In this document: positions 3,804-51,672 of the stretch, in pieces
Position numbering within the stretch: position 1 is the stretch's first letter
Layout: each line of letters begins with the position of its first letter
Source of the DNA: a virus
Direction: 5' to 3' (one strand)
DNA length: 64,000 nt
IMG/VR virus record: IMGVR_UViG_3300020424_000003
Location: 16,676-80,675 of that record
The notes under the pieces: model-generated
Databases searched by the model: none
Told to the model about the DNA's origin: nothing
The model's input: the letters and a program-made list of their open reading frames with translations, nothing else
Position numbers and translations under genes: made by a program

Positions 3804-4250
3804 TTATTTGATTTCGATAGTTCTTGGTTTTTTAGACTCTGGAATAATTCTTTCCAAAGAAATTGTCAATAAACCATCTTTCAACTCAGCACCCTTGACT
3901 TCAACGTCATCAGCGATGCTGAAAGATTTAGTAAACATTCTCTTACTAATTCCTTTGTGCAATACGCCAGACTGATCTCCGTCTTGTTTTGCTTCTTGAA
4001 TTGATTTAACAGTAATTACACCGTCCTCATAACTTACGTCGATGTCTTTCTTACTGAAACCAGCTAGTGCGATTTCAATGTTGTAAGTGTAGTCACCAGT
4101 TTTCATAATGTTATATGGTGGGTAGTTTTGATGTGTTTGATTGGCAAAAAAGTTGTCATCAAACATTGATTCGAATCTATCAAAGATAGGATCGAAACCT
4201 ACTGTTACGGGTCTTAGTTGATTAAAAATTGATAGGTGTGATTTAGTCAT
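3804..4250 (-). CDS. Small heat-shock protein Hsp20 (IbpA-like)
   Basis: YPPYNI, IEIALAGF, LHKGISKRMF, DGLLTISL; ATG at 4250 follows AGGAGG. Confidence 0.95.
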   Translation of the reverse strand: MTKSHLSIFNQLRPVTVGFDPIFDRFESMFDDNFFANQTHQNYPPYNIMKTGDYTYNIEIALAGFSKKDIDVSYEDGVITVKSIQEAKQDGDQSGVLHKGISKRMFTKSFSIADDVEVKGAELKDGLLTISLERIIPESKKPRTIEIK

Positions 4251-5987: not shown

Positions 5988-6586
5988 TTTTCAACTCCAT
6001 AGTTAAAAGAAAGTGCTATTCTATTTGTTTTTGATCTGTTTTGCTTTACTGCGTGTTTGACCCAAGAAGGAAAAACAACAAGCATTCCAGGTTTAGGTGG
6101 ATATGTTGCCATGGTGCTTGTAATTGTATTATACTGATTCAAGTTATCAGGTATGTAATACTGTGCGTCATCGCCACGATAAAACTGCAAGTCACCTTGG
6201 TTCTCTTCTGGTACATCAATATAGAACACACCACTTAACATTCCATCTTGATGGTTGTGTAAAGTATGATAAGCACCTGGTGGATTAATATTAATCCACA
6301 AATTTTGAAATACTAATTTAGGAAAGCCTGCACTCTTAGAACAATAATCTATGGCTTTGTCTAATTCTATTAGCAATTTATTAAATGTAGGTTGAATGTT
6401 AGGAGGTAGAAGGTCAACCTTCTCTATGCTTCTGCTATGCCAACCACCTTCGTTGCTATTTCCAGCAAGTTCTGGTTCAGCCTTTTGCCATGCTTCTGCG
6501 ATAGCCTTTAGATCAGCTCTTGGTATGTCGTCATTGATTCCTGCAAATACAATACTAGGAAACCAAAGATCTGCTTTCAACTCCAT
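5984..6586 (-). CDS. Putative 2OG-Fe(II) oxygenase
   Basis: WININ...HNH...SGVFYI...FPSWVKHAV...RIALSFN. Confidence 0.85.
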   Translation of the reverse strand: MELKADLWFPSIVFAGINDDIPRADLKAIAEAWQKAEPELAGNSNEGGWHSRSIEKVDLLPPNIQPTFNKLLIELDKAIDYCSKSAGFPKLVFQNLWININPPGAYHTLHNHQDGMLSGVFYIDVPEENQGDLQFYRGDDAQYYIPDNLNQYNTITSTMATYPPKPGMLVVFPSWVKHAVKQNRSKTNRIALSFNYGVEK

Positions 6587-6822
6587 TAATAACCTTCCTC
6601 TAACATTCTTTTCTGCATCGCTTTTTTGTGCCTAGCAATACCGGCCGCTTTTTGTCTGGCCTTCTTTGTGCTTGGCTTTTCAAAATATCTTTTGGATTTG
6701 TATTCCATCAAGATACCATCTTGCGACACTTTTCTTTTGAATTTTCTCAAAGCCTTGTTAAAGTCACCGTTACGAACTGCAACATATAACCCTTCAGGCT
6801 TTTTTGTTTTGAACTTCGGCAA
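6586..6822 (-). CDS. rpsU: Ribosomal protein bS21
   Basis: VAVRNGDFNKALRKFKRKV...YFEKPS. Confidence 0.92.
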   Translation of the reverse strand: MPKFKTKKPEGLYVAVRNGDFNKALRKFKRKVSQDGILMEYKSKRYFEKPSTKKARQKAAGIARHKKAMQKRMLEEGY

Positions 6823-7195
6823 AGTCTTCTCCTTCTGCTAATTGTCCAACGTCAAAAATTCTACGATTACATAACATATTATAGTGCATAGACTCGGCAC
6901 TTGTCAAGTAAAAAGTTTTATCATAAGATAAAATTTTGCCAATAATCCATTTATGGCTGTCAGCGACATTGTCTATATCTAGTATGATGTAATCAGAAGT
7001 ATTACAAACGTCAAGTAACCAACCCAAGTCGTTCGATTCTTCGAACAGATATACATTAAGATTCTTACCCAGTTTCTTTGCCATTTCATTAAACTGTTCT
7101 TTTGTAGTTGTGCTAGGATATACAAGTGTGAAACTTAAATTATTATTATACAATTTATCAGGTGAAGTGATAAGATTGAGTACAGGCTGTTTCAT
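6794..7195 (-). CDS. Hypothetical protein
   Basis: 133-aa ORF tightly packed in the operon. Confidence 0.7.
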   Translation of the reverse strand: MKQPVLNLITSPDKLYNNNLSFTLVYPSTTTKEQFNEMAKKLGKNLNVYLFEESNDLGWLLDVCNTSDYIILDIDNVADSHKWIIGKILSYDKTFYLTSAESMHYNMLCNRRIFDVGQLAEGEDFAEVQNKKA

Positions 7196-7270
7196 ATTAC
7201 TACTTATTGTTTCTGATTTTTTGCCAAATAGAGTTCTGATTTTGCTCTTGATTTTGAACGTATACTTCTG

Positions 7271-9001
7271 TTAGGTCTGGTCGGAGTCTTCCGGATTGGT
7301 TGTCTGGCGTACTTGCTTGTTGCTTACCTTTGTTATGTAATTGGTTCCGCTCACCGTTTTTTTTTGAGCTTCGTCTATTTGTTTTAATTCTTCGCCATAA
7401 AAAATTCTATTTTTGGTATCAACATACTCTTTATCTTTATCTTTTTCTTTTTGATCTTCTTTTATTGCTTCTTTTTCTGCGGCATCTACCCATTGGTTCC
7501 ATTTGTCAACATCTTTTACTTCGTCTAGTATGTCTTCCTTTTTTTCTTCTTTAGGTTCATAGTTCTTGTTGAATTCTTCATACCCTTCTACTTCAGCTGG
7601 ATCAAATCCATCATTGACTTCTTTTATGATCTTTTCTTCAAGCTCTTCTTTCATATCAAGCTCTTTGTCAACAGTCACAGGCTCTTCGGGTAAAGGTTCA
7701 AGTTCGTCCTGCATCGTTTCACTGAACGACTTTTCTTCACTGTGATCAAGTCCAGGTTCAACTTTGACTTCTGTTGTGTCTGTGGTTACTGCACCCAGTG
7801 AACCTGCCACTGCTACTTCTTTAGTTGGAGTTGGCTCGGGCTCTGGATCGTTAGGTTCGTCTGGATCTGGATCGGACTTTGGGGGCAACTTCCCGCCCTT
7901 GTCCTCTCTTACATATTGAAATGTATATTGTGAAGCAATTAATAATAATACCGCAAGTGGATCAAATACAAAAATAATAATTATTATTACCCATCTTACA
8001 GCCGATTCTAATAATGATTGATTTGCTTGTTCACCATAGATAAATTCAGCAATATATTTAATTGGTCCTACTTCAGCTTCTAACTTACGATACTCTTTTT
8101 CATAACCAAACTTCTCTTCACGTACTTGATCAATTACTAATTGTTCTGCATCAATAAAGTTTTCAAGTTCTGTAACACGAGCATCTATGTCTTCAGTTTT
8201 TTCATTGGCTTGATTACGTAGATCCTGTATTCTATCCTGTATTGCTTTGATATCATTTGCATATTTGGCATCTACGGCCGCAAGTGCTTCATTAAGTTTA
8301 GCATTTATGTTTCTAATTTCTCTTTGTGCCGAACTTGCCACTGACAGTTCGTTTGCCTTTGCTTCTTCTACTGCTTTGTCAAACTTGGCACCGCCACCAA
8401 AGGATCCTTCAAACCTATCCTTGGCCGCTTGTATATCTGCTTCTTTACGTTCTTTTGCTTGTTCAATACGTTTGTTCTGTAATTCTATTTGTTTGTCAAA
8501 GTCAACACGGACATCATCTTTTTCAGCTTTTATAAGTGCATTGATTTTATCTAATTCTTTTTGTTCACGATCAATAAGATTATCTACACGGACATCTTCG
8601 CCTTTCATTAGGCGATTCATTTCATCTGTCCAACGTTCTATTTTACCCTGTGATCTAATTTCCTTGTCATCAAGTGTTTTAATTAAAGCAACTTGTTCTT
8701 GGCTCATAGATGTTTGTTCTATGTGTGCTTTAGATAAGAAACCAAAGATACCCATTGATGTTATAAACATTAACACAATGACTGCTATTGAAAGATAGGT
8801 TTTTAACCACCAGGCGGCTCGTGACCAATGTCTGTGTAACCATACTGCGGTAACAAGTTTCCCTATTTCTAAAGAAACACCCATGATAATGATTGGAATC
8901 ACAGCCGCGGCGAATATAGCCGCCAATCCTGCCACCGAATAGTATATAGCTACCGCACTAATAGTTAATGCAGATAGAAATGTTAATATTCCTAATAACA
9001 T
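7271..9001 (-). CDS. Membrane-anchored coiled-coil protein with acidic tail; a -1 frame extension to 7200 is likely
   Basis: Three N-terminal hydrophobic segments, long coiled coil, one more TM segment, acidic tail; A9 run at 7357-7365. Confidence 0.8.
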   Translation of the reverse strand: MLLGILTFLSALTISAVAIYYSVAGLAAIFAAAVIPIIIMGVSLEIGKLVTAVWLHRHWSRAAWWLKTYLSIAVIVLMFITSMGIFGFLSKAHIEQTSMSQEQVALIKTLDDKEIRSQGKIERWTDEMNRLMKGEDVRVDNLIDREQKELDKINALIKAEKDDVRVDFDKQIELQNKRIEQAKERKEADIQAAKDRFEGSFGGGAKFDKAVEEAKANELSVASSAQREIRNINAKLNEALAAVDAKYANDIKAIQDRIQDLRNQANEKTEDIDARVTELENFIDAEQLVIDQVREEKFGYEKEYRKLEAEVGPIKYIAEFIYGEQANQSLLESAVRWVIIIIIFVFDPLAVLLLIASQYTFQYVREDKGGKLPPKSDPDPDEPNDPEPEPTPTKEVAVAGSLGAVTTDTTEVKVEPGLDHSEEKSFSETMQDELEPLPEEPVTVDKELDMKEELEEKIIKEVNDGFDPAEVEGYEEFNKNYEPKEEKKEDILDEVKDVDKWNQWVDAAEKEAIKEDQKEKDKDKEYVDTKNRIFYGEELKQIDEAQKKTVSGTNYITKVSNKQVRQTTNPEDSDQT

Positions 9002-9044
9002 ACTGCTCCCTCTGTATTCTTTGTATAACATATTTATCTTAATT

Positions 9045-9488
9045 TTACCTTACAAACCGCCATCCTTGATGACCAGTTTCCCTACAAGCAACCTCTTTAA
9101 AGTGTCGTAGTTTACCTTTGTAATTTAATTTAGATAAAACTGTTCTACAATAACCACTTCCCATAGGATATGTACTTGCAACAAATACTTCACCATTGGT
9201 TCCAGTGTCATTATTATACCAACTTGTTGCTTGGCCAGTTTCATTGTTATCAAGAGCAAAATATATTGCTTGTTCTTGTTTCATTCTATCTTCAGCCGGT
9301 AATCTATACCAATGCCATTTAGTAAGATTAACAATAATACCTACATAACCACTGCTTGGTTGATATGTTGATTGAACACTTGATGTTGTGGTGTCACTAG
9401 TATTGTATGTTTGAACGTTCTTTGTAGAACTACAAGCCCCTAATATACTAAAAAGGGCTAGTAACAATATACCATTTACTAGTTTCAT
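9045..9488 (-). CDS. Lipoprotein, 17-kDa surface antigen-like
   Basis: Lipobox LGAC; ALDNNETGQATSWYN...GYCR...ACR. Confidence 0.7.
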   Translation of the reverse strand: MKLVNGILLLALFSILGACSSTKNVQTYNTSDTTTSSVQSTYQPSSGYVGIIVNLTKWHWYRLPAEDRMKQEQAIYFALDNNETGQATSWYNNDTGTNGEVFVASTYPMGSGYCRTVLSKLNYKGKLRHFKEVACRETGHQGWRFVR

Positions 9489-9792
9489 AGTCTTTTCCTT
9501 GCATTAGACAGGCATAGCCTTTTCTTTCGACCATCCTGCCATTAATGTTAACACTATACCAATGTTCGCGACATTCCTTTGCTATGCCCATTTTGGGTGG
9601 CAATAGCTTTTTGACAGGATCGTCGCTACATTCTGTGATTTGTGTGCTGTCAACTACACCGTTTTTTTCAATGATTGTTTTGTTAGTATCACAATACTGA
9701 TGACCGTTTTCTTCTAGTGTTAGCTTGTTACCTGTGGCACTACAACCTGTAGCTACCATCATCAGAGCTATTATGTATAGAAGATGTTTCAT
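9448..9792 (-). CDS. Putative lipoprotein
   Basis: Lipobox ATGC; paired cysteines. Confidence 0.65.
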   Translation of the reverse strand: MKHLLYIIALMMVATGCSATGNKLTLEENGHQYCDTNKTIIEKNGVVDSTQITECSDDPVKKLLPPKMGIAKECREHWYSVNINGRMVERKGYACLMQGKDYETSKWYIVTSPF

Positions 9793-11219: not shown

Positions 11220-11651
11220 TTATAGGGTTACCTTTCCTTCTTTGATGAGCTTCTTTCTGTTATTTAGATGTGCTTTCTCAACTTGGTCTTTGTTCTGGCC
11301 AGTGTACACAACTCCGTAACCCTCTTTGATCATTGTCTCAGTTAACTTCTTGCCATCAATTAAAAAGTCTCCAAGTATTCTGCCAAACTTTCCTTTTTTG
11401 TCTTCACCACTTCTATCAATTTGTGTTTTCAAAACTTGTTTGGAACCAACTGGCATCATGTCTTTAACAAACTGTTTAGATGCTAAACCAAATTTCTTTT
11501 CTACTTTGTCTCTTGTTCTTGATTCAGGAGTGTCTATGCCCATCATTCGGACACGTTCTTTGTGCATCCACATACCAAAGCCTAAGTCAATATCAACATC
11601 AACTGTGTCACCATCGACTACTCTTAGGATTTTACAGCGGTACTCGTACAT
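11220..11651 (-). CDS. Thermonuclease (SNase)-family nuclease
   Basis: RVVDGDTVD, VRMMGIDTPES, GKFGRILG. Confidence 0.9.
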   Translation of the reverse strand: MYEYRCKILRVVDGDTVDVDIDLGFGMWMHKERVRMMGIDTPESRTRDKVEKKFGLASKQFVKDMMPVGSKQVLKTQIDRSGEDKKGKFGRILGDFLIDGKKLTETMIKEGYGVVYTGQNKDQVEKAHLNNRKKLIKEGKVTL

Positions 11652-11797
11652 TATCTACCTTGACCTCTGTAAAACTTATGGCTTCTTTTTTTGTGTTTGT
11701 TCATGGAACTCATCTTGCAAGATCTTTTACGTCCAGCTTGAGAAGTTGTCTTTGGTTGACTTACATGAACTGATTGTGTTTTGCCCCATGCGGCCAT
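11651..11797 (-). CDS. Small basic protein (48 aa; not in ORF track)
   Basis: MAAWGKTQ...SSMNKHKKRSHKFYRGQGR with AAGGAG SD and upstream TAAATA. Confidence 0.75.
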   Translation of the reverse strand: MAAWGKTQSVHVSQPKTTSQAGRKRSCKMSSMNKHKKRSHKFYRGQGR

Positions 11798-11835
11798 AAC
11801 TGCTCCTTGTTAACTATGCAGTTATTTATCTTATG

Positions 11836-11912
11836 TGGCGGGAGTGAAGGGACTCGAACCCTCGGCCTTCCGCGTGACAGGCGGACGCTCTAACCAACTG
11901 AGCTACACCCCC
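11836..11912 (-). tRNA. tRNA-Asp(GTC)
   Basis: Cloverleaf; anticodon loop CTGTCAC; encoded CCA. Confidence 0.95.
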
Positions 11913-11918
11913 ATATGG

Positions 11919-11994
11919 TGGTGGAGGATACAGGAGTCGAACCTGCGACCTCCTGAATGCAAATCAGGCGCTCTCCCAACTGAGCTAATCCCCC
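11919..11994 (-). tRNA. tRNA-Ala(TGC)
   Basis: Cloverleaf; loop TTTGCAT; G3-U70; encoded CCA. Confidence 0.95.
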
Positions 11995-12169
11995 AAAGTC
12001 TTAACCGCAACCGGATATACAAATCATCCAAGGTTGTCCAAATGCTATCTGATGTGCTACGTCTAAAACAATAGCTACACCCATTATCGTTACAAAAGTC
12101 ATCATGTCACTGTTCCTTGTGTTGTGATAAAAACTAGCTTTATTATATAGTCATTTAATGAAGATGTCA

Positions 12170-12470
12170 AGTGCAACTTTTCTGTTGCTAGGTAAGTTGC
12201 CAACCCCGAGCGATTATGCCGCTAGGGCAAAATCCTCATTTACAACGGATTTCTGTTTACCGAAGTTAACAAAAGTCACGTTGTTTAGTGCATTATCGTT
12301 TGCATCTATACGTTTGTTCGCGTTAACCGAGCTTACATCCGGACAGTCTCCTTCAACCTTAACAAGCCAATCGATCCTAATTCCACCCCGTCGGGGGTAT
12401 ATTGAATTGGTGGAGTGGCCGGGAATTGCACCCGGGTCTTGCTCTTGTGACATACGTTGCTATCATCAAT
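12170..12470 (-). ncRNA. ssrA: Circularly permuted two-piece tmRNA; tag (A)ANDNALNNVTFVNFGKQKSVVNEDFALAA
   Basis: T-arm and CCACTCC-A-CCA (12408-12418) precede an 18-nt spacer and GGGGTGG (12383-12389), giving G3-U70; tag frame 12214-12303 ends LAA-stop; outer ends approximate. Confidence 0.9.
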
Positions 12471-12540
12471 TGCTATGTATTTATAGCCTTATTTGTATAG
12501 TATGCACTTAATTGTGATAACTAATGTCAAAGGATTAACA

Positions 12541-15857: not shown

Positions 15858-18203
15858 TTAAATTGCACATGATTCACAAACTTCATCCTCATCTTCAGCC
15901 TTTACTTGACTGTCTGTTAAACCAACTTGTGGTTCAAATGGTTTTTCTTTATAAGCGATCTCAGTTTTGATTTCATCTTCACTAGGATCAGTCTTAAAGT
16001 CATATGTGTTTTGGTAATAAGAAGTTTTCCAACCATACTTATAAGTGGTTAGCATATCTTGTAGCATAACACTCATTGGCACTTCATTGTTTTCGAAGTG
16101 TGTAGGATTGTAACTCCAGTTACCTGAAATTGCCTGATCAAAAAACTTTTGCATCACTGCAACAATTTTTATATAACCCTCATTACTTGGCATATCCCAT
16201 AATAACGTATAGTTATTCTTTAACGTTTGATACTGTGGAACAATCTGCTTAAGAGGCCCTTTTTTTGACTTCTTAATGGACAAGAACCCTCTAGGTGGTT
16301 CGATTCCGTTTGTTGCGTTCGACACAATGGAACTGCTCTCCGAAGGCATCTGTGCGGACAATGTTGAGTGCCGTAGACCGTGAAGTCCAATGCTCTTGCG
16401 AAGATCATCCCAGTCATATTTTAACGTGATCGAACAAACTTCGTCCAGTTCCTTTTTGTATGTATCAATTGGTAATATACCATCACTGTATTTAGTACGA
16501 TCAAAATATTCACACTTGCCTTTTTCCTGTGCTAATTTATTACTTGCTACCAATAGATAGTATTGAAATGCTTCTGTTAGCTCATGCACTTTAGTAAGTG
16601 CTTTTTTATCATTATACTTAACACCATTCTTTGCAAGGTAATGTGCAAGTCCAATATATCCAACACCAAGACTTCTTCTTGCTTTGGTTGAAACTTCTGC
16701 GGCTTTCACAGGATAACGTTGGTAGTCAATAACTTCGTCTAATGCTCTAACTGCCAAGTCACATAAATCTTCTAACTCCTCAAGATCTTTTAATACACCA
16801 ACATTGATTGCAGATAAAATACAAAGTGCTATCTCACCGTCAGGATCATCAATGTGTTGCAATGGTTTAGTTGGCAAAGTAATCTCTTGGCAAAGGTTGC
16901 TCATGTAAACAGGATCTTTGAAAGAGCTGTGTGTGTTTGCATGATCAACATTCATGATATATATTCTTCCTGTTTCTGCACGTTCTTTTATTAATGCAGA
17001 AAACAATTCCATTGCTTTGATCTTCTTTTTCTTAATTGAAGTTTTGCGTTCATATTTTTCATACAGTTCTTGGAACTTTTCTTGATCTGCATAAAATGAA
17101 TCATATAACTCTGGAACATCATGTGGAGAAAATAAAGTTATCTCTTCGTCATTTAAAAGTCTTTCATACATGACTTTGTTTAATTGAATTGAATAATCTA
17201 ATCTTCTTACTCTGTTATCTTCTGTTCCTTTGTTATTCTTTAGCACTAGGATATCTTCTATCTCATAATGCCAAAAAGGAAAGTGTGTTGTTGCATTACC
17301 ACCACGTACTCCATTCTGTGTGCAACATCTTACAGTTGATTCGAATTTTTTAAGAAAAGGAATTACTCCTGTGTGTGCAACCTCACCACCTCTAATTTTA
17401 GAATTGATGGCTCTGATTCTTCCTGCATTGATTCCAATACCTGCTCTCTGTGCCGTGTATCTTCCTATGGCCATATCGCTAGAAAAAATGCTGTCAAGTG
17501 TATCATCTATGTCCACTAATACGCAAGAAGCAAATTGTCTCAACGGTGTTCTCACACCTGCCATAATGGGAGTAGGAATATTAATTTTAAATAATGATGT
17601 TGCGTCATAGTATCTTTTTACTATAGACATTCTTTTATCTTTAGGATAATCTGCAAATAGTGTTGCCGCAATCATCATGTACATCACTTGTGGTGATTCA
17701 TGTATGTCACCTGTGCTTCTATCTTGCACAAGATATTTGTCAACAATTTGTCTCAGTCCTGCATAGGTAAAATTTTCATCTCTACTATGTTTGATCCAAC
17801 TATTCAACTTCTTTAATTCTGTTTGTGTATATTTTTCTTTGATAGCAGGGTCGTATACGCCTCTATCAATATTTCTATCTATTATTTTTGTAAGCGGAAT
17901 AGGAGTGTATTGTCCAAACGTTTCTTTGTAAATCGGATATAACAACAATCGTGCCGCAACATATTGATAATTGGGGTTATCCAATGTGATCAAATCGTTA
18001 GATGATTTAATTAATATTTCTTGTATTTCTTCTGTTGACATTCCATCATAAAATTGTATGTTCGCAGTCATCTCAACTTGCGAAGCACTAACATTTGATA
18101 GTCCTTCACAGGCTTCTTCTACTACAAAATGAATTTTATTGATGTCTAATGGTACACTTGTTCCGTCACGTTTAATGATATGAATTCCGACGCCGTTTGA
18201 CAT
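15858..18203 (-). CDS. nrdA: Ribonucleotide reductase class Ia alpha subunit
   Basis: ATP cone, QFASCVL, SNLCQEI, TSYY, C-terminal CESC. Confidence 0.98.
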   Translation of the reverse strand: MSNGVGIHIIKRDGTSVPLDINKIHFVVEEACEGLSNVSASQVEMTANIQFYDGMSTEEIQEILIKSSNDLITLDNPNYQYVAARLLLYPIYKETFGQYTPIPLTKIIDRNIDRGVYDPAIKEKYTQTELKKLNSWIKHSRDENFTYAGLRQIVDKYLVQDRSTGDIHESPQVMYMMIAATLFADYPKDKRMSIVKRYYDATSLFKINIPTPIMAGVRTPLRQFASCVLVDIDDTLDSIFSSDMAIGRYTAQRAGIGINAGRIRAINSKIRGGEVAHTGVIPFLKKFESTVRCCTQNGVRGGNATTHFPFWHYEIEDILVLKNNKGTEDNRVRRLDYSIQLNKVMYERLLNDEEITLFSPHDVPELYDSFYADQEKFQELYEKYERKTSIKKKKIKAMELFSALIKERAETGRIYIMNVDHANTHSSFKDPVYMSNLCQEITLPTKPLQHIDDPDGEIALCILSAINVGVLKDLEELEDLCDLAVRALDEVIDYQRYPVKAAEVSTKARRSLGVGYIGLAHYLAKNGVKYNDKKALTKVHELTEAFQYYLLVASNKLAQEKGKCEYFDRTKYSDGILPIDTYKKELDEVCSITLKYDWDDLRKSIGLHGLRHSTLSAQMPSESSSIVSNATNGIEPPRGFLSIKKSKKGPLKQIVPQYQTLKNNYTLLWDMPSNEGYIKIVAVMQKFFDQAISGNWSYNPTHFENNEVPMSVMLQDMLTTYKYGWKTSYYQNTYDFKTDPSEDEIKTEIAYKEKPFEPQVGLTDSQVKAEDEDEVCESCAI

Positions 18204-24045: not shown

Positions 24046-24402
24046 TTAAAGAGCGGCGTTGGTTGCTCTTTTTGCCATTTGGTCGACTGTTGCATCTGCT
24101 GGATCAGTAGTTTTAGTCATTGGCTCTTCACTGTCAGCTTCTTGTTTTGTGGTTAATGTTACACCTTTGTCATCAAAATTTTTGACAAGTTTTTGAACGT
24201 CTGGATTGGCATCATATATTTGTTTGAAGCCATCATAGTCAAACTGTTGTAGATCCATGTTGGTCATTATTTGATTGAGTGCTTCAAAAGACAGATAGGC
24301 AGACTGACCTTTACTGTCAGCACTACCTATCATATTTCTAAATGTTGAGATTAACGCCTCTTTTGAATTTGACGCTTCAGTTACTTTGGTTCTTGTGGAG
24401 CC
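24046..24402 (-). CDS. Downstream frame reached by a -1 shift from the 377-aa gene
   Basis: Frame is open from the A9 run (24403-24411) through the track ORF 24046-24333, whose ATG has no evident SD. Confidence 0.7.
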   Translation of the reverse strand, partial: GSTRTKVTEASNSKEALISTFRNMIGSADSKGQSAYLSFEALNQIMTNMDLQQFDYDGFKQIYDANPDVQKLVKNFDDKGVTLTTKQEADSEEPMTKTTDPADATVDQMAKRATNAAL

Positions 24403-25514
24403 TTTTTTTTTGAGTCAGTTAATAACTGACCTAATCTTCTGCTACGTTCAACGGATTCTCGTTTTTCCCTGTCCGCTACCTCTTCGCCTCCTGTTGCTGG
24501 TTCACTTGCTCCGAACTCATCATCAGTTGCTACTGGTTCAGCACCGGCCTCCTGGTCAACTGTTGGTTCCATTGGTTCCTCAGCTGGAGCTTCTGGATCT
24601 GCACCCATTGGCTCTGGAGCACCTTCGCCTGTTACGATGGCTACGCCACCTGTTAGTGCTTCTCTTGTAGTTTCAAAAACTGTATATAAATTTTCAAGTG
24701 CTGGTTTTACAGTATTGATGAACTCTTCGCTTTTCTCTGATCCTAATTCATCTCTGATCTTATCGCCTAGTTCAAGCATTGATTCAGTTTGCATTTCTGC
24801 TGTATCTTCCATCCAGCCTGTGAGTCTATCCACCATGTCCTTTGCGGCCATAACTAATGTTGCTTTATCTTCTTCACCCTCTATTAATTTAATGTAGCCT
24901 TCTAATGCTTCATTCATTTCTTTCTTGCAATCTTTGATTAACTGCTTTAATTTGTCTTTGTCTGCATCTGGGTGCATTTTCAACATTTCTGCTTCGGACA
25001 TTCCATCCTTGCACATTTTCATTACGTGTGCTTTTGATGGCATTTTACCTTTTTCTTCTTTTTCTTTGATGTCTTTAGCTTCGTCGTCTTTACCTTGCTT
25101 TTTAAGTATTGCTTTCTTTAAGCCTGCTGGTAATTTTTCTTGACCTTTTGTTAAATCTTCATCAGCTACATCTTCTTTTTTAGCTTCTTTATCCTTAACA
25201 GCCTTTTTCATTGGCTCTTTCTTATCGCCATCACCATCTATATCGATATAGTCTGGTTTAGCTTTAGCTCTTTCTTCAATTTCTCTGTTGATTACGTCTA
25301 GGAACATTTTGCCTTTTTGGTAGGCATCGCTTGTATGAACTGTTTCGAAACTTTCGTTGGTTTCAACTTGACTTAATTGTGTTCTAAGTTTGTTACGAGC
25401 ATCTTCAAGTTGCTCATTAGTGAAATCGTTCAAACGAAGTTTGGTTCCGAATGTTTTTGCCAATGACTCATTTAAGTCTTCAGCTGATGTTATTTTAAGT
25501 TCATTTAGTTTCAT
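24381..25514 (-). CDS. Acidic prohead-core/scaffold-like late protein
   Basis: MKLNEL start, LNE/IKE/LIE motifs, highly charged, upstream TAAATA. Confidence 0.65.
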   Translation of the reverse strand: MKLNELKITSAEDLNESLAKTFGTKLRLNDFTNEQLEDARNKLRTQLSQVETNESFETVHTSDAYQKGKMFLDVINREIEERAKAKPDYIDIDGDGDKKEPMKKAVKDKEAKKEDVADEDLTKGQEKLPAGLKKAILKKQGKDDEAKDIKEKEEKGKMPSKAHVMKMCKDGMSEAEMLKMHPDADKDKLKQLIKDCKKEMNEALEGYIKLIEGEEDKATLVMAAKDMVDRLTGWMEDTAEMQTESMLELGDKIRDELGSEKSEEFINTVKPALENLYTVFETTREALTGGVAIVTGEGAPEPMGADPEAPAEEPMEPTVDQEAGAEPVATDDEFGASEPATGGEEVADREKRESVERSRRLGQLLTDSKKKAPQEPK

Positions 25515-35583: not shown

Positions 35584-35844
35584 ATGCTTATTATTAAACG
35601 TTTATTAAACTGGTGTGAGATTGTGGGCTATGCGAAAGCATCAGCAGAACTATCACGTCAGGGCTTTCATGCTGAAGCAAAGGCTTTGATGCTGGAGAAG
35701 ACAAAACTTCAAGGCAGAAAAGAAAGAGCTCTAGTAAGATTAGAAGCCAAAAAAAAATTTAAAGCAGGGTATGATCCTGCCAATCACTACATGAGAGGCA
35801 AGTCCGTTGCAACCTGGAGTGGCAAGAAAGGTATGGTAGCTTAA
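35584..35844 (+). CDS. Small hypothetical protein
   Basis: GYAKASAELSRQGF; SD present. Confidence 0.65.
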   Translation: MLIIKRLLNWCEIVGYAKASAELSRQGFHAEAKALMLEKTKLQGRKERALVRLEAKKKFKAGYDPANHYMRGKSVATWSGKKGMVA

Positions 35845-51399: not shown

Positions 51400-51486
51400 G
51401 ACCGCGTGGCGGAATAGGTAGACGCAACGGACTTAAAATCCGTTATCGATATCGGTGTGTGGGTTCGAGTCCCTCCGCGGTCACCA
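51400..51486 (+). tRNA. tRNA-Leu(TAA)
   Basis: Loop CTTAAAA; long variable arm; CCA. Confidence 0.93.
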
Positions 51487-51499
51487 CCCTTTGAATAAT

Positions 51500-51576
51500 C
51501 TGCCCGTAGCTCAGCTGGACAGAGCAATGGCCTTCTAAGCCATGGGTCGAGGGTTCGAATCCTTCCGGGCAGGCCA
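51500..51576 (+). tRNA. tRNA-Arg(TCT)
   Basis: Loop CTTCTAA; CCA. Confidence 0.95.
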
Positions 51577-51578
51577 AA

Positions 51579-51672
51579 GGTCCTATAGTTTAACGGTAAA
51601 ACACCCGATTTATATTCGGCATAGTCTCCAGATTAGAGAGCGATCCTGGTTCGAATCCAGGTGGGACCACCA
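51579..51672 (+). tRNA. tRNA-Ile(TAT) with an atypical 24-nt variable arm
   Basis: GGTCCTA/TGGGACC acceptor stem; loop TTTATAT; CCTGG-TTCGAAT-CCAGG T-arm; ACCA end. Confidence 0.8.

Follow-up and report, generated by a model that had tools for sequence, protein, structure and literature searches.

A conserved run of nine adenines as a candidate -1 recoding site in a membrane-protein gene of an uncultured marine virus

The window analysed here is a 64,000-nucleotide stretch (positions 16,676 to 80,675) of IMG/VR record IMGVR_UViG_3300020424_000003, part of an 80.7-kb contig from an uncultured marine virus with 38% guanine plus cytosine. Its minus strand carries a gene for a membrane protein in which a run of nine adenines (A9) is followed by two open frames. 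Very probably this run, which we call site 1, is a programmed -1 recoding site that gives rise to isoforms of 586 and about 610 amino acids (aa). We lean towards RNA-polymerase slippage as the route to the -1 frame. What we infer from comparing sequences is the production of the long form, its share and the molecular step that slips.

Two frames behind one A9 run

The features of site 1, in positions of the window, are as follows (ORF, open reading frame).

7271..9031, minus strand: zero-frame ORF, short isoform, 586 aa.
7357..7365, minus strand: A9 slippery run, CAA AAA AAA A, codon phase 2, holding the in-phase heptamer A_AAA_AAA.
7274..7356, minus strand: overlap with both frames open and with selection on the zero frame (tail TVSGTNYITKVSNKQVRQTTNPEDSDQT).
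7203..7358, minus strand: -1-frame reading, 52 codons, C-terminus of the predicted long isoform of about 610 aa.
7200..7202, minus strand: TAG stop of the -1 frame, 4 nucleotides (TAAT) ahead of the next gene's ATG at 7195.

The 586-aa protein has three transmembrane segments at its N-terminus, then about 240 aa of coiled coil, then a fourth transmembrane segment and an acidic tail. In most relatives the protein begins at the counterpart of M11 (ATG at 9001). At site 1 the minus-strand letters are GCT CAA AAA AAA ACG, and the zero frame then runs through 28 further sense codons to TAA at 7271-7273. The -1 frame, with codons from 7358, translates as NGERNQ...RPDLTEVYVQNQEQNQNSIWQKIRNNK; its conserved motif, LTEV-YVQNQEQNQNSIWQKI, sits past the zero-frame stop (7203-7270), and a single tryptic peptide would span the stretch LTEVYVQNQEQNQNSIWQK of this tail. 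The -1 stretch contains no ATG, GTG or TTG start codon. A first-pass annotation, made from the letters alone, had described this layout (the run at 7357-7365, the zero frame ending 29 codons on, the TAG at 7200, the 4-nucleotide gap before the next ATG) and proposed two alternative C-termini for the membrane protein. Every detail of the layout was correct, and the proposal is borne out in that both tails are under coding selection.

This selection is visible in the entropy of the three codon positions. Across the overlap, the values in the zero frame were 0.56/0.53/1.04 bits (26 sequences); past the zero-frame stop, the values in the -1 frame were 0.69/0.52/1.12 bits (27 sequences). The third-position excess thus switches frame, the pattern expected of two isoforms that part at the run. 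Across the overlap the short tail is selected in the zero frame; past the stop the selected part is the motif, read in the -1 frame, and in the long form the overlap would be a mere linker.

The N-terminal body of the membrane protein matched more than 575 stretches in IMG/VR, and we examined 88 loci. The motif [YF]-x-Q-N-x-E-Q-x4-S/T-x-W/F lay in the -1 frame at 24 loci, representing 19 distinct contexts with 45-88% aa identity to the window; adding metagenome contigs raised the count to 27 distinct sequences. Conservation of the -1 peptide, the test set in advance by the annotation, was therefore found, and in other homologs the motif was in frame. All loci with the motif in the -1 frame, the added contigs included, have exactly A9, 22-34 codons ahead of the zero-frame stop. 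The flanks vary widely and the run is unchanged across all 19 contexts. None of the five in-frame forms (L003/L026, L005/L029, L080, L088 and L078) has A9 at that place. L003/L026 carry an A7 there, out of phase, and in L005/L029 and L080 the segment is absent. The lineage of L078 and L072 has A10 at the run position in two independent assemblies; dropping one A from it reads TFIMRDQENQTR, which is short-tail-like and resembles the window's NYITKVSNKQVR.

More distant relatives carry other C-terminal modules. In L061, L062 and L055 these are in the -1 frame behind A7G (GAA AAA AAG) or A6C (ACA AAA AAC TAG), and in L054, which has A8 at 4168, the module is in the +1 frame. We distinguished two such modules. 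Module b, of about 80-110 aa ('DINDEISVQLTEVKKIIDMDG...WIKNWL'), occurs in L027, L031, L032, L042, L060 and L077, and module c, of about 110 aa ('GDLFxRVDxLPNKLFRYxGxKWxEI'), in L055, L061, L062 and L082. One or the other is in frame in L033-L036, L038, L041, L052, L056 and L076; elsewhere they lie in the -1 frame behind A9, A8, A7G or A6C, 0-7 codons ahead of the stop.

Among isolate phages, megablast with the region gave no match and tblastn gave only distant N-terminal matches, the best of them to Pelagibacter phage Mosig (44%). The Mosig homolog is 326 aa long, is without the tail and adjoins a putative glucosaminidase. A search of a large collection with the 52-aa -1 peptide found no fused long protein among the longer proteins, which is weak evidence.

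The A9 of site 1 is present in DNA and is not an artefact. DNA contigs of two other studies cross both this run and the second run described below with zero gaps. By exact-pattern scan, the window's own lineage has A9 at site 1 in 7 of 8 viral contigs and in 11 of 12 metagenome contigs, and A10 in none of either. The sole exception in both scans is one and the same A8 contig, with neither tail in frame. Sequencing libraries of DNA and RNA were read as assembled (Logan) contigs, which all show A9 as the consensus and in which minority lengths are invisible. L178/L189 have A8 (3739-3746 of L178) with both tails out of frame (RRQDPIT*); their runs and the A8 of L054 are either genuine run-length mutants or homopolymer assembly errors.

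A second site and the reach of the device

The window holds the 12-nucleotide sequence CTCAAAAAAAAA in just two places, 7357-7368 and 24403-24414, each time on the minus strand; 0.06 occurrences are expected. The second occurrence marks another A9 run, site 2, and the contig has a third A9 elsewhere.

24403..24411, minus strand: second A9 run, TCA AAA AAA AAG, codon phase 3, containing A_AAA_AAA and A_AAA_AAG.
24381..25514, minus strand: site-2 zero-frame ORF, 377 aa, with a weak PHROG match to 'virion structural protein'.
24046..24402, minus strand: site-2 -1-frame continuation, 118 codons, entering a listed 95-aa ORF.
35749-35757, plus strand: third A9 of the contig, in an 86-aa ORF; the -1 frame is closed at once and no frame is rescued.

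The annotation had named the 24.4-kb run as a second case in a different codon phase (CAA AAA AAA A at site 1, TCA AAA AAA AAG at site 2). This was confirmed, and the second case is conserved even more widely than the first. In the window the run lies six codons ahead of the zero-frame stop. About 68 of 80 relatives (50 distinct contexts; 32-87% identity) share the arrangement, with the run 0-7 codons ahead of the stop and 100-130 open -1 codons that form a conserved domain. The length A9 is kept in about 46 of the 50 contexts; the ATG of the 95-aa ORF is not kept. Read from these comparisons, site 2 would fuse the 377-aa ORF to a domain of about 115 aa by the same device. Six relatives (L121, L130, L149, L148, L165 and L166) have no A run and encode the domain in an ORF of its own, starting at an ATG that in some cases overlaps the upstream stop as ATGA. 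The domain thus does not depend on fusion. Searching isolate phages by tblastn with both site-2 ORFs gave no match.

Broader claims of the annotation did not hold as worded. It had taken CTC-A9 as the signal, but the bases ahead of the run vary at both sites (ctc/ttc/atc/tcc/att at site 1, ttc/ctc/gtc/atc/cgg/tcg at site 2), and the C directly before the run is there because it belongs to a CAA (Gln) or TCA (Ser) codon. Nor is the signal phage-wide: the 80.7-kb contig has no more than three A9 runs, of which the third is unrescued, and a 148-kb relative has a rescued -1 frame in the same two genes only. A9 runs are scarce in related phage contigs (10 per 543 kb), and inspection of every A9 of four related contigs revealed no further recoding gene, the other -1 frames stopping immediately. 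That the two are late genes is plausible only. A GATAAATA box lies upstream of both, which fits late transcription and is no proof of it. The genes around them belong to nucleotide metabolism or are auxiliary; none of these neighbours is structural.

Some unrescued runs stand apart. In L192 (G001:34543-34551) and L196 (G002:17901-17909), A9 lies inside ORFs of 275 and at least 754 codons and the -1 frame ends immediately; these are possible truncation-type slippage sites. An extra A9 upstream of site 1, within the acidic tail, occurs in L001 (4311), L004 (4251), L007 (4263) and L005 (4438), and also in L038, L052, L064, L072/78, L080 and L088. Most of these extra runs read TCA AAA AAA AA, and their -1 frame closes after 0-14 codons. 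In so Lys-rich a tail they may have arisen by chance, or they may offer a dnaX-like route to truncated forms.

Polymerase slippage and its alternatives

Standard decoding of site 1 would give the 586-aa protein with the tail ...QKK-TVSGTNYITKVSNKQVR...DQT. A polymerase slipping on the T9 template would add one A to some transcripts, making them A10. In that fraction of expression events reading would shift to -1 at the run and give a protein of about 610 aa with the tail ...QKK-NGERNQ...LTEVYVQNQEQNQNSIWQKIRNNK. Ribosomal slippage on the embedded A_AAA_AAA may add to the recoding. The two isoforms would have the membrane and coiled-coil body in common and differ at the C-terminus by a short peptide, probably on the cytoplasmic side.

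Programmed slippage at poly-A runs is well known. At both sites the run has at least 8-9 A/T, its length is conserved among diverged homologs, and one added base leads into a frame whose coding sequence is conserved. A 9A run of homolog-conserved length has been taken as purposeful transcriptional slippage (Baranov et al. 2005, PMC1088944), and slippage is efficient in vivo at 9 A/T, for example in Thermus thermophilus dnaX (PMC5009743). Reporters in E. coli gave 10% at A7, 40% at A9 and 63% at A11 (PMC3711429).

Several features of the sites weigh on the side of the polymerase. At site 1 the two As that the heptamer does not need, the first and the ninth, are both invariant. The preceding codon is always CAA and the following codon is ACN or AGR (Thr/Arg), A-first throughout; at the observed codon usage (AAA 0.67, CAA 0.77), the expected share of lineages that write QKK as CAA AAA AAA is about 0.34. 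TCA makes up only 26% of Ser codons, yet 46 of the 50 site-2 contexts have it. RNAalifold placed 0 pairs in a conserved RNA structure at either site, and the window's fold was no better than those of shuffled sequences (z = -0.22). A hairpin around the run, GCUCA-loop-UGAGC, was dropped as it is confined to the window's close kin. The strict length of nine and the lack of conserved structure favour polymerase slippage, and the scarcity of A9 in related contigs counts on the same side. The A10 lineage and L054, with its A8, need the opposite shift, which suits a polymerase and hardly a ribosome. Polymerase slippage had also been the annotation's preference, on the strength of the different codon phases at the two sites. 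The proposal is reasonable, given the conserved length, but the phase difference fails to exclude the ribosome because any A9 holds an in-phase X_XXY_YYZ heptamer.

We also considered a shift near the zero-frame stop instead of at the A9, since L003 has both tails in one frame. We rejected this: some lineages have LTEV ahead of the stop, the surroundings of the stop hold no conserved slippery site, and the A10 lineage restores the frame at the run itself.

The main competitor is a purely ribosomal -1 slip in which tRNA-Lys occupies both the P and the A site, on A_AAA_AAA at site 1 and on A_AAA_AAG at site 2, and all of the messenger RNA carries A9. We regard it as less likely, though a number of observations weigh for it and against the polymerase. 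The in-phase heptamer is inside every A9, in every lineage and in both codon phases. L147 and L156 have reached A8 at site 2 through a synonymous TCA>TCT change that leaves A_AAA_AAG in place, and the A8 variant L077 retains this heptamer too. The A7G and A6C runs of L061, L062 and L055, with the C-terminal module in the -1 frame behind them, look like ribosomal sites, being too short for a polymerase to slip on efficiently; other homologs have the same alternative modules in frame. The zero-frame stop of site 2 often comes directly after the heptamer. Contigs from RNA libraries read A9 as the consensus, which means only that unslipped RNA, or carried-over DNA, predominates in them; the RNA-library contig of X15 terminates 7 nucleotides from the site-2 run and carries no weight. 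Moreover, the junction peptide QKK-NG is identical either way, so sequence cannot separate the mechanisms, and because the lineages are related our probabilities are rough.

On the other side, a purely ribosomal slip leaves unexplained the invariant extra As at site 1 and the kept TCA and first AAA at site 2. Shorter runs that keep the heptamer never occur in the window's subfamily, though the A8, A7G and A6C relatives named above have them. The A10 lineage (L078) would need a +1 shift to make the short tail, and L054 has its module in the +1 frame. A conserved downstream structure was found at neither site; a stimulator of this kind is usual for frameshifting, not obligatory.

DNA phase variation, in which replication slippage would keep up sub-populations of A9 and A10 genomes that each make one isoform, is improbable. 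Run length does differ among lineages (A8 in L178/L189 and L054, A10 in L078/L072). Within the window's lineage, however, the scans above found A9 almost throughout and no A10, the lone A8 contig has both tails out of frame, and the -1-peptide search met no fused protein among longer proteins. Length 9 has also stayed steady over deep divergence.

We give equally little credit to the absence of functional recoding, with the -1 peptide a relic of an ancestral in-frame C-terminus and the A9 a by-product of coding rich in Lys and in A and T. KKK in a Lys-rich tail yields A9 about 30% of the time, several homologs have the extra upstream A9 with no rescued frame, and the A/T-rich window has 3 A9 runs against 5.6 expected, not above chance. 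An A9 is thus unremarkable by itself, and the significance of site 1 comes from comparing relatives. A relic should decay, yet the -1 stretch is open and third-position-biased in 27 sequences at 45-88% identity and always ends just ahead of the next gene. The A9 also goes with the -1 motif (24 of 24 loci) and not with the in-frame forms (0 of 5).

Homopolymer sequencing or assembly error, or a separate reinitiated small gene in the -1 stretch, is the least probable: homopolymers are error-prone and one contig has A8, but many independent assemblies agree on A9, which already refutes an error, two independent DNA runs cross it with zero gaps, the -1 stretch of site 1 lacks a start codon and the downstream ATG of site 2 is not conserved.

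If polymerase slippage is the route, a wider picture may be drawn, which we offer tentatively. Polymerase stuttering on a fixed A9 could be a general isoform generator, used by at least two unrelated genes of abundant marine myovirus-like phages. Lineages would move freely among four equivalent solutions: A9 with the long form in the -1 frame, A10 with the frames swapped, an in-frame fusion, and two separate genes. The length of the run would set the ratio of the isoforms. If true, tailed phages of SAR11-type hosts would have their first described system of conserved transcriptional slippage, and with it a natural series for telling polymerase slippage from ribosomal slippage.

Known systems, neighbouring genes and significance

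A close parallel is T. thermophilus dnaX (tau/gamma), which likewise has exactly nine sense-strand As late in the gene (PMC1088944, PMC5009743, PMC3711429). Both cases have two products with a common N-terminal body, a conserved run length and no need of RNA structure. In dnaX, however, the slipped messages lead to a shorter product, with nearby stops in both other frames; at site 1 of the phage the transcript with one added A would lead to a longer product with a conserved motif, and the slippage is deduced from sequence. The gene, host and phage context are unrelated.

E. coli dnaX and the transposase genes of the insertion sequences (IS) IS3 and IS1 (A_AAA_AAG/A_AAA_AAC) use the same Lys-codon heptamers and the same -1 direction as here. 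The fusion at site 2 resembles orfA-orfB of the IS3/IS1 type, and the bare A7G and A6C of the distant membrane-protein relatives match E. coli dnaX and IS-type sites. Those systems have a Shine-Dalgarno-like element upstream and a hairpin or pseudoknot downstream, whereas no conserved structure was found here; seven bases suffice for them and nine are conserved at the phage sites. The two dnaX cases are themselves a parallel in which the machinery differs by lineage.

In the phage capsid and tail genes T7 10A/10B and lambda G/GT (tail assembly chaperone), as is predicted here, a major short form is accompanied by a minor one with a -1-frame C-terminal extension. These differ in using ribosomal slippage on G_GGA_AAG or similar and in being structural or assembly proteins of known role; the protein described here is a multi-pass membrane protein of a marine myovirus-like phage with no assigned function. 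The magnesium chelatase and other GeneTack clusters (Antonov et al. 2013) share with our sites a conserved poly-A run of 7-11, fused homologs elsewhere, an efficiency that rises with run length, and a choice between transcription and translation that is unsettled. They are cellular genes, and the two phage families are not among the clusters described in the text consulted. The pelagiphage and recoding papers searched held no report of such slippage for either phage gene family.

Searches of Pfam, PHROGs and the ESM Atlas assigned no function to the membrane protein, the -1 peptide or the alternative C-terminal modules, and returned only sub-threshold Tetraspanin and coiled-coil matches. The gene order is two lipoprotein-like ORFs, the membrane-protein gene, a 133-aa ORF and a phage bS21 gene. 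The two upstream ORFs (9045-9488 and 9448-9792, minus strand) begin with signal-peptide-like and lipobox-like sequences (LGAC, ATGC) and are possible lipoproteins. The ORF at 6586-6822 (minus strand), two genes downstream of the recoding site, is bS21-like by eye from its translation. Phage bS21 is known from pelagiphages (PMC6375957); a link between it and the recoding is speculation.

For annotation, the consequence is that gene callers see a truncated ORF followed by an 'empty' gap or an orphan ORF, so the predicted long isoforms are absent from protein databases. The two affected families occur in hundreds of marine viral contigs. The forms found in them (A9, A10, A8, A7G, A6C, in-frame and split) make up a comparative series on the use of polymerase versus ribosomal slippage, and the C-terminal peptide Y-x-Q-N-x-E-Q...S-x-W marks a short functional motif on the membrane protein that can now be tested.

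Elsewhere in the window, ARAGORN predicted a permuted transfer-messenger RNA (tmRNA) with a 29-residue tag and seven tRNAs (Asp, Ala, Gly, Trp, Leu-taa, Arg-tct and Ile-tat), at 12123-12504 (minus strand), 11836-11994 (minus strand) and 51400-51672 (plus strand). The same scan of the window found no tRNA-Lys. In all four sequencing runs, contig depth rose in spikes of 10- to 300-fold at 11596-12232 and 16055-16691, which cover the tRNA/tmRNA region and part of nrdA. These spikes most likely reflect conserved sequence common to other organisms.

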